Source: Vulcanisaeta distributa DSM 14429 | GTDB lineage: Archaea; Thermoproteota; Thermoprotei; Thermoproteales; Thermocladiaceae | Direction: 5' to 3' | NCBI RefSeq assembly: GCF_000148385.1 | Contig: NC_014537.1 | Location: 2,070,001-2,102,000, forward strand | Length of the DNA stretch: 32,000 nucleotides | Shown here: in pieces, positions 18,865 through 19,992 of the stretch | How the letters are laid out: each line of letters opens with the position of its first letter | Position numbering within the stretch: the first letter of the stretch is position 1 | Position numbers and translations under genes: made by a program | Notes under the pieces: model-generated | The model's input: only the letters and a program-made list of their open reading frames with translations | Told to the model about the DNA's origin: nothing | Database searches by the model: none

Positions 18865-19992
18865 ATGATGTTTTCTAAGAACCCGGTAGATATCATTAAG
18901 GATAGAAAATTTTCACAGGGTGAGATTGCCGATTCACTTAGGCTCGCTATTATGGCTGAGCTTGATGCCATAAACCTATACCTACAATTATCCAGGCTCA
19001 TTGATGATGAGCGAGTTAGGAGGGTATTTGAGGATATAGCTAAGGAGGAAAAGACACACTTTGGCGAGTTTCTCACGTTACTTAAATCCTACGACCCTGA
19101 GCAGGTTGAGCAACTAAAGGCCGGTTCAGCAGAGGTCGGCGAGCTAACGGGTATTAAATTGCCGGCAAATGACCCTAATAATGGTCAGAGGAAGTCGGGC
19201 TCAACTAGTAATGCCAATGATCCTCCACCTGACGTGGTTTCATCATCGAACCTAAGTCCCGAGGAACTTAGATACATACAGGATAGGATTAGGGAGGTTG
19301 CCAATGGTGTGAGGAGGTTTAGGAAGTACTTAACCGTTTATGAGGCTGGTCCTGGGCTTGATGCCGTGCCGCTTGACGAAGTCGTAATTGGTCCTCCAAT
19401 TACTGCGACTAGGTCCGTGATACCACTTAAGGAGTTAAGTGTGAAGTTCTCAATTTTGCAAAGGCAGGTGGAGTACGCTAGGGCAAGGGGTGAGAGGGTT
19501 TACTCGGTAACCGCTGATCAAGCGGCTATTAAGCTTGGTTATGAGGAGGACTCAGCAATACTTAGCGATATTTTAAGTAATCCTAGGGTTAGGTCAATGA
19601 GTATTTCATCGTGGGACATGCCCGGTTCAGCAGTTAATGAAGTATCAAGCGCTGTTAATGCATTATATGGTAATTACATACCTGAGCCGTACGTATTATT
19701 CGTAAGTCCTGGTAGGTATACAAAGCTCTTAATGGTTGTTGAGAGGACGGGCGTCATGGAGTTAACGAGGGTTAAATCCCTGGTTAAGGATGTGGTGATT
19801 ATTCCTCAATTAAAGGATGACACTGCATTATTACTATCTGCTCATCAATCAATCATCGATATAGCCGTGGGTGTTGACACGGCATTGGTATATTTAGGCC
19901 CTGAGGATAGGGCGCATGGTTTTGTATTGTGGGAGACGTTGACTGTGAGAATTAAGGATCCCAGGGGTGTGATCATTCTTAGGCAGGGATAA
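18865..19992 (+). CDS. Encapsulin shell protein (HK97 fold, family 1, PfV-type) with an N-terminally fused ferritin-like (EncFtn/Flp) domain
   Basis: The N-terminus LRLAIMAELDAINLY...IAKEEKTHFGEF provides E32/E62/H65 ferroxidase-type ligands. The C-terminal SSWD, SPGRYTKLL and LGPEDRAHGFVLWETLTVRIKDPRGVIIL segments are collinear with my recollection of Pyrococcus furiosus PfV (PF1192). Confidence 0.85.
   Translation: MMFSKNPVDIIKDRKFSQGEIADSLRLAIMAELDAINLYLQLSRLIDDERVRRVFEDIAKEEKTHFGEFLTLLKSYDPEQVEQLKAGSAEVGELTGIKLPANDPNNGQRKSGSTSNANDPPPDVVSSSNLSPEELRYIQDRIREVANGVRRFRKYLTVYEAGPGLDAVPLDEVVIGPPITATRSVIPLKELSVKFSILQRQVEYARARGERVYSVTADQAAIKLGYEEDSAILSDILSNPRVRSMSISSWDMPGSAVNEVSSAVNALYGNYIPEPYVLFVSPGRYTKLLMVVERTGVMELTRVKSLVKDVVIIPQLKDDTALLLSAHQSIIDIAVGVDTALVYLGPEDRAHGFVLWETLTVRIKDPRGVIILRQG

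Follow-up and report, generated by a model that had tools for sequence, protein, structure and literature searches.

What does the 375-codon open reading frame (ORF) in the middle of this stretch of the Vulcanisaeta distributa DSM 14429 chromosome encode, and does its setting mark it as anything other than an ordinary member of its family? The stretch (NC_014537.1, positions 2,070,001 to 2,102,000) is 32,000 nucleotides (nt) long and is called the window below; positions are those of the window unless another locus is named. An earlier note, made from the DNA letters, had proposed that the gene encodes a self-loading encapsulin, in which a ferritin-like domain of the EncFtn type is joined through a linker to an HK97-fold shell domain, and that the linker and the neighborhood may mark a distinct subtype. 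We find the first proposal well founded and do not follow the second. With a probability of roughly 0.93, the protein is the V. distributa orthologue of the Pyrococcus furiosus virus-like particle protein PfV, that is, a Flp-fusion family 1 encapsulin most likely forming a self-loading nanocompartment for iron mineralization and oxidative stress, probably with triangulation number T=3. The data described below show how the domains are arranged, that the ligands are conserved, which fold the protein has, that it is an orthologue of PfV and that the gene is independent of its neighbors, and none of the tests run (hidden Markov models (HMMs), PDB sequence matches, ligand conservation and a structure model) contradicted the identification. 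The gene itself is already known: it is annotated in RefSeq and belongs to a well-described archaeal family.

The ORF (18865-19992) opens with ATG ATG, and its product of 375 amino acids (aa) is 100% identical to the NCBI entry [quoted passage not shown]. The PDB entry that it matches best is 2E0Z (E=3.7e-51), the virus-like particle protein of P. furiosus, aligned in two stretches on one chain; the second-best is 5N5E, the excised P. furiosus EncFtn domain. The ORF list, curated HMMs, these PDB matches and an AlphaFold2 model (computed from 51 aligned relatives; mean predicted local distance difference test score, pLDDT, of 85.7) all bear out the three-part layout that had been described. Both domains lie on one polypeptide, and the ratio of cargo to shell is thus fixed at 1:1, as the earlier note had also claimed.

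For the C-terminal domain, which had been called an encapsulin shell, profile and structure searches gave the same answer. Pfam PF04454 (Linocin_M18) matches residues 128-360 (E=1e-29, 103.9 bits against a cut-off of 24.3), and the NCBIfam equivalog model NF041155 (encap_f1) matches residues 127-371 at 109 bits, where the cut-off is 100. In the model an alpha/beta domain is confidently predicted from residue 132, begins with an N-terminal helix (132-149) and has pLDDT values that are mostly 90-97. The top 50 Foldseek matches in the PDB are encapsulin shells without exception; 9FY6 is matched at E=1.5e-22, and the PfV chain 2E0Z_A superposes with a target-normalized template modeling (TM) score of 0.90 and a root-mean-square deviation (rmsd) of 2.2 Å. 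The protomer of T. maritima encapsulin, a T=1 shell, fits less well (TM ~0.76, rmsd ~5.6 Å) than the protomers of T=3 and T=4 shells do (M. xanthus EncA, B. methanolicus, Q. thermotolerans). Going by PfV, which is T=3, and by this order of fits, the particle is probably T=3.

The N-terminal domain is modeled as three helices (residues 18-45, 49-76 and 78-95). The Foldseek alignments extend only over about the length of the shell targets (242-280 columns), and the evidence for an EncFtn fold is therefore taken from sequence homology to 5N5E, with which residues 3-98 align at E=3e-28 and 55% identity over 97 aa. The NCBIfam model EncB_fam spans residues 3-96 (E=1e-21). Both of the motifs of 5N5E that hold the ligands, AELDAINLY and EEKxHxGEF, are intact in the V. 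distributa domain. The ligands proposed from the sequence, E32, E62 and H65, align with these motifs, and the codon positions first given for them proved exact. Together with Y39 they are invariant in an alignment of 51 relatives. In R. rubrum EncFtn, E32, E62 and H65 are mutagenesis-verified ligands of the ferroxidase center, and Tyr39 is a conserved second-shell residue (PMC11202242).

The only Pfam model to match the N-terminal domain above threshold is PF02915, Rubrerythrin (residues 24-82, 31.6 bits against 22.8). We therefore considered whether the domain might be a rubrerythrin-like peroxidase, or some other di-iron oxidoreductase, in a shell that detoxifies peroxide instead of mineralizing iron. 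A gene for a 1-Cys peroxiredoxin (AhpC-TSA/1-cysPrx_C) lies directly upstream of the V. thermophila encapsulin gene, in the same orientation and across a 116-nt gap (locus L006 of our comparison, 4193-4885). This arrangement, seen in one genome only, fits a role in oxidative stress, and it would agree with a peroxidase. The V. distributa domain, however, consists of only a two-helix half-bundle and a third helix, which is just the arrangement of EncFtn, and no rubredoxin domain is present. It is also 55% identical to a P. furiosus domain with measured ferroxidase activity, from an organism whose particles contain iron hydroxide cores. A peroxidase thus seems very unlikely to us, and we retain the identification as a fusion-type EncFtn domain.

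Assembly, T number, ferroxidase activity and the iron core we infer from the characterized homologues. By analogy with PfV, the shell domains would self-assemble into an icosahedral cage, most likely a T=3 particle of 180 subunits measuring ~30 nm across, and each N-terminal EncFtn domain would hang into the lumen on a disordered tether of ~33 residues. Pairs of EncFtn domains would build a di-iron ferroxidase center between chains from E32, E62 and H65, Y39 being a second-shell residue, and such pairs could stack into annular decamers. Fe(II) would enter through pores in the shell and be oxidized, giving a ferric mineral core that would store iron and keep it from Fenton chemistry. Since the cargo is part of the shell polypeptide, neither a targeting peptide nor a separate cargo gene should be needed, and the gene would be transcribed alone from its own TATA box. 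This picture draws its support from P. furiosus. Once excised, the P. furiosus domain forms a decamer that resists heat and sodium dodecyl sulfate and has ferroxidase activity (bioRxiv 10.1101/431494; PMC11202242). Within P. furiosus cells the fusion protein is abundant and assembles into virus-like particles whose cores are iron hydroxide, and peptides that bridge the two domains have been detected (bioRxiv 10.1101/2025.03.19.643997).

Three points qualify this reading of the protein, and none contradicts it. The models for stand-alone EncFtn score under their own cut-offs here: PF22277 gives 18 bits where 27 are required, NF058679 gives 76.7 of 90, and TIGR04535 gives 53.2 of 125. This may be because those families consist largely of stand-alone cargo proteins. 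At the level of sequence, the domain is not filed as a stand-alone EncFtn or as EncB, and its homology to the fusion-type EncFtn domain 5N5E is unambiguous. Second, the di-iron site forms across two chains, and a monomer model such as ours cannot display it. Third, 180 tethered domains would make 18 decamers, which cannot follow icosahedral symmetry (PMC11202242); this difficulty holds for PfV as well. He et al. noted that decamers formed from tethered subunits would require sufficient flexibility in the linker (bioRxiv 10.1101/431494).

The linker peptide quoted in the earlier note corresponds to residues 99-132, and its description as rich in serine, asparagine and proline was right: these three make up 18 of the 34 residues over positions 98-131. 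Residues 100-127 have pLDDT below 50 and are the only internal low-confidence stretch of the model. The linker had been thought to be about 20 aa longer than that of PfV; the direction of the difference is correct and its size roughly so. A phmmer search of the PDB with the linker plus the early shell segment aligned nothing informative over PfV residues 105-179, so we measured the difference from flanking anchors and from a Thermococcales-like representative. Between matched anchors (residue 105 of the query with 104 of PfV, and 209 with 180), V. distributa has 28 extra residues. On a profile-anchored scale, the interdomain spacer is the longest of 40 representatives of 50%-identity clusters, at 27 as compared to 3 in the Thermococcales-like P0147, a difference of 24. 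From G96, at the end of the ELTGI motif, to R153 of an invariant RxFR in the N-terminal region of the shell, there are 56 residues, which is the maximum among 118 relatives (median 38.5). The excess is due almost wholly to an insertion of ~18 residues (101-118) between ELTGI and a conserved Asp-Pro-Pro, such that 22 residues separate G96 from D119 where the family median is 4. The linker of V. distributa is thus about 18-24 aa longer than is typical and is the longest sampled.

Is this long linker the mark of a subtype? The number of residues before the Asp-Pro-Pro is graded among the relatives: 22 in V. distributa and V. souniana, then 20, 18 and 16, 13 in V. thermophila, 6-7 in Caldivirga and 5 in Thermoproteus. 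Long linkers of other composition, such as those of the G-rich P0140 and P0141, have evolved independently in other lineages. Because linker length grades continuously within the clade, it defines no distinct subtype; graded length is the behavior of an indel-prone disordered spacer. V. distributa is the natural extreme of linker length among Flp-fusion encapsulins, which is of modest value in itself. The natural series of 5-22 residues, in hyperthermophile proteins that are otherwise 63-93% identical, offers ready constructs for a question that the field has raised, namely how 180 tethered EncFtn domains can make D5 decamers within a T=3 shell, and it may also be of use in engineering self-loading thermostable cages. 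By our own rough estimate, a fully extended tether of 33 residues would reach ~10-12 nm, about twice as far as a PfV-type connector; if that holds, the long Vulcanisaeta linker would relax the constraint on forming decamers from tethered domains.

The sole detail of the linker that is unreported is the conservation of Asp-Pro(-Pro) within it. Among the 118 relatives, D119 is conserved in 95%, P120 in 92% and P121 in 63%, within a linker that is otherwise hypervariable, and an Asp-Pro occurs in the linkers of 31 of the 40 representatives of 50%-identity clusters. PfV has none in its linker, and we found no literature on Asp-Pro in encapsulins. The V. distributa group has two copies, ANDPNN and ANDPPP, which flank the insertion, the first Asp-Pro being at residues 103-104. 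We considered whether the insertion arose as a duplicated ANDP segment and set the idea aside: Tandem Repeats Finder found nothing in positions 19100-19300, and the pattern is one of the peptide only, lacking statistical support. It is tempting to see in the Asp-Pro(-Pro) a functional site and not a passive spacer, although we think this unlikely. It might be a labile bond that frees the EncFtn domains after assembly: a heat- or acid-labile Asp-Pro would break at 85-90 °C inside the closed shell, and domains so freed would resolve the mismatch between 180 tethered domains and decamer symmetry described for PfV. Alternatively, it might serve as a short docking site that holds the tether against the shell's inner surface, or it might be a structural kink. 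If the site were functional, the exceptional length of the Vulcanisaeta linker would adjust how far the hexon-borne domains reach.

Among thermophilic Archaea, fusions of this kind are not especially rare. Of the top 120 clusters at 90% identity, 118 hold full-length proteins (at least 325 aa), nearly all with both domains. When 1.84 billion representatives were searched with a profile, about 40 fusion clusters emerged at 50% identity, beside shell-only and EncFtn-only relatives. Thermophilic Archaea therefore hold at least 118 full-length clusters at the one level and ~40 at the other, and the earlier note's "rare" was an overstatement. The fusions group together in a crude neighbor-joining tree of the shell domain (BLOSUM62 distances, midpoint root), where the clade with all 40 fusion representatives also includes seven "shell-only" tips, which we suspect are truncated gene calls. 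Andreas and Giessen (2021, PMC8346489) describe the Flp-fusion systems as all archaeal and "mostly in the phylum Crenarchaeota", with T=3 capsids in P. furiosus and S. solfataricus, and their supplementary table enters Vulcanisaeta sp. OSP_8 and two Caldivirga as "FLP-Fusion". A literature search pairing encapsulin with Vulcanisaeta by name found only an unrelated paper on particle tracking in E. coli.

In Vulcanisaeta sp. JCM 14467 (locus L005, 6001-7121), the encapsulin gene is split in two frames near codon 248, with the tblastn segments for residues 1-248 and 249-374 abutting at nt 6744 of that locus, and the NCBI protein is 279 aa long; this is either a pseudogene or an assembly frameshift. 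Pyrobaculum has two types of encapsulin. A long-linker protein (loci L007-L009, 5001-6122) is 77% identical to that of Vulcanisaeta, while the usual Pyrobaculum type (P0029, P0035, P0106) is 44-52% identical. The long-linker copy is preceded by 870 nt in which no gene is called and followed by several small ORFs. The two types suggest horizontal transfer or old paralogy within the Thermoproteales.

To consider how the gene is expressed, we compared the DNA upstream of it. The element ATTTAAATA matches the pattern A..TTAA.TA, in which seven of nine positions are invariant in the upstream regions of seven encapsulin genes from Vulcanisaeta species and Caldivirga whose neighborhoods differ. Its placement ~26 nt upstream of the ATG suggests that it is a TATA element giving a leaderless, independently transcribed mRNA. 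The downstream gene for a TRIC-type cation channel has a TTAAATA of its own at 20011-20017, ~26 nt before its GTG start, which is kept in four Vulcanisaeta loci. Since the encapsulin's TATA element is kept across unrelated neighborhoods, the gene is best read as an autonomous, probably leaderless and monocistronic unit. That the gene is monocistronic with its own TATA box had been proposed from this one sequence, and the TTAAATA-type element conserved in seven loci backs the proposal. A scan for sigma-70 promoters and intrinsic terminators was set aside, as the host is archaeal and the matches were at or below the shuffle expectation.

The coordinates of the gene, its parts and its nearest neighbors are collected below.

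Table 1. Features of the V. distributa encapsulin locus, in window coordinates.
Feature	Position	Strand	Basis and remarks
Flp-fusion (EncFtn-encapsulin) gene	18865..19992	+	375 codons plus stop, single uninterrupted ORF (ORF list)
ATTTAAATA, putative TATA-box-like element	18835..18843	+	Center ~26 nt upstream of ATG; sequence and upstream alignment
EncFtn-type ferritin-like domain, residues 1-98	18865..19158	+	5N5E match, NCBIfam EncB_fam, Pfam Rubrerythrin, AlphaFold2 helices
Predicted ferroxidase-center residues	18958..19059	+	E32 = GAG 18958-18960; Y39 = 18979-18981; E62 = GAA 19048-19050; H65 = CAC 19057-19059
Interdomain linker, residues 99-131 (LPANDPNNGQRKSGSTSNANDPPPDVVSSSNLS)	19159..19257	+	Predicted disordered (AlphaFold2); hypervariable, mostly gapped alignment columns
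Clade-specific linker insertion, residues 101-118	19165..19218	+	Gap in 69-91% of relatives (per-column gap fractions)
Asp-Pro-Pro in linker, D119-P120-P121	19219..19227	+	Conservation across relatives
Family 1 encapsulin HK97-fold shell domain, residues 132-375	19258..19989	+	Pfam PF04454, NCBIfam NF041155, AlphaFold2, Foldseek
Divergent two-gene unit (context only)	17213..18753	-	Mo-pterin oxidoreductase and ARMT1/DUF89 phosphatase, 4-nt overlap
Mo-pterin oxidoreductase domain protein	18088..18753	-	PF00174, E=1e-37
ARMT1/DUF89 damage-control phosphatase	17213..18091	-	PF01937, E=8e-25
Prokaryotic TRIC-type cation channel gene (context only)	20040..20723	+	2 x PF03458/UPF0126; starts 47 nt downstream of encapsulin

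Pfam and PDB matches agree with the neighbors that had been named: a divergent Mo-oxidoreductase/DUF89 pair on one side, and on the other a TRIC gene 47 nt downstream, whose product matches PF03458 in two stretches (E=5.5e-41), 5WUC (E=1e-53) and 5H35, "Membrane protein TRIC" (E=8e-35). If these neighbors supplied or processed ions or substrates for the nanocompartment, V. distributa might have a distinct, functionally coupled subtype, with the long linker as its diagnostic feature. The linker is indeed the longest in the family, and the gene order Mo-oxidoreductase, encapsulin, TRIC, a 78-aa ORF, RFC-large, RFC-small is common to three Vulcanisaeta genomes (L001-L003). Those three are close relatives with encapsulins that are 84-88% identical, however, so that their synteny is uninformative. 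No PF03458 or PF00174 gene lies near the encapsulin in the other loci (L004-L010), and the neighbors there are unrelated. The loci of Vulcanisaeta sp. JCM 14467 and of Caldivirga UBA161 (L004) have no matches to the window's encapsulin neighbors; V. thermophila has the peroxiredoxin gene upstream and an ammonium transporter gene downstream; the long-linker Pyrobaculum loci have GH77 and small ORFs; and a second Caldivirga locus (L010) has a HepT/Pol-beta pair and pyrimidine genes. Further against coupling, the genes for encapsulin and TRIC are each preceded by a separate, conserved TATA element, and linker lengths run continuously from 5 to 22 residues within the clade, with long linkers appearing independently in P0140 and P0141. 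The TRIC gene is a conserved neighbor in three close Vulcanisaeta genomes only, while five other neighborhoods differ, and we read the adjacency as ordinary genus-level synteny. A subtype coupled to its neighbors is accordingly most improbable, and the suggestion that linker plus neighborhood mark a distinct subtype lacks support.

No separate cargo gene is apparent either. A loose regular expression applied to the last 40 residues of the 110 ORF segments of at least 60 aa found no convincing family 1 targeting-peptide motif at a C-terminus, which agrees with the earlier statement that the neighbors have none. The scan gave two candidates, both rejected as trivial matches: the RFC large subunit has TLGI, and a hydrophobic ORF has SLGI. 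Pfam scans of the larger ORFs in the window found no ferritin or rubrerythrin genes.

The shell's HK97 fold, and the title of a paper on the S. solfataricus homologue, "Fossil record of an archaeal HK97-like provirus" (cited in PMC8346489), might suggest a relic capsid gene of a decayed provirus, kept by chance and with no role in cellular iron storage, but we give this almost no credence given the strong conservation over many archaeal orders with invariant catalytic ligands and a conserved promoter, the abundance of the P. furiosus homologue with its iron cores (bioRxiv 10.1101/2025.03.19.643997), the unremarkable GC content and the lack of phage genes nearby. Pfam searches of the window's ORFs of 110 aa or more found no terminase, portal, protease, integrase or other phage gene, and a few ORFs match nothing at all. 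The absence of nearby phage morphogenesis genes is a criterion that was used in the Giessen and Silver census of encapsulins. Horizontal transfer or a genomic island at this locus was also considered and set aside, as the composition of the window is flat (GC content 0.40-0.48) and no mobile-element genes are nearby.

Several other genes in the window deserve brief mention. The Mo-pterin oxidoreductase is only 221 aa long and consists of the PF00174 core alone, with no dimerization domain and no evident signal or Tat motif; its translational coupling to the DUF89/ARMT1 gene through the 4-nt overlap is an unusual pairing. The 78-aa ORF downstream of TRIC (20704-20940, minus strand) has no Pfam match. 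It is 68-77% identical in the three Vulcanisaeta genomes, runs convergently into the 3' end of TRIC with an overlap of 20 nt, and shares 59 nt with the end of the RFC large-subunit gene; a genuine small gene is likely. Beyond the Mo-oxidoreductase pair is a 632-aa ORF (15314-17212, plus strand), also without a Pfam match, with a hydrophobic N-terminal segment and very many N-x-S/T sequons, whose product is probably an N-glycoprotein, either secreted or at the cell surface. In L002 a partial homologue of it adjoins the Mo-oxidoreductase gene. A tRNA gene of ~96-99 nt (14455-14553, plus strand) scores 41 bits with the Rfam tRNA model, and ARAGORN names no anticodon for it; it is probably an intron-containing archaeal tRNA. 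The same window holds genes for the RtcB tRNA-splicing ligase (24238-25692) and TruD (12282-13631).

Among the systems already described, PfV (PF1192; 2E0Z for the shell and 5N5E for EncFtn) is the closest in kind. The two proteins have the same three parts in the same order, EncFtn domains that are 55% identical with identical ligand motifs, and shells that superpose as given above. They differ in length, at 375 aa for V. distributa and 345 for PfV, with nearly all of the 30 additional residues lying between the domains. The PfV connector is short, of the type EAHINDNKKEE and without Asp-Pro, whereas V. distributa has a linker of ~33 residues, rich in serine, asparagine and proline, with two Asp-Pro. 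The hosts differ too, PfV being from the Thermococcales and V. distributa being a crenarchaeon of the Thermoproteales.

The crenarchaeal Flp-fusions of Andreas and Giessen (2021), such as those of Saccharolobus solfataricus, Vulcanisaeta sp. OSP_8 and Caldivirga spp., share both family and phylum with the V. distributa protein and are 44-93% identical to it, and it is set apart from them by having the longest linker sampled. The two-component systems (T. maritima 3DKT, R. rubrum 5DA5, M. xanthus EncA/B/C/D) share the shell fold and the EncFtn chemistry, and in R. rubrum EncFtn even the numbering of E32, E62 and H65 is identical. Those systems oxidize and mineralize iron inside the shell. They do so with a separate cargo protein that bears a C-terminal targeting peptide and is loaded sub-stoichiometrically, whereas every V. 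distributa shell subunit carries its cargo covalently at its own N-terminus, and there is no targeting peptide.

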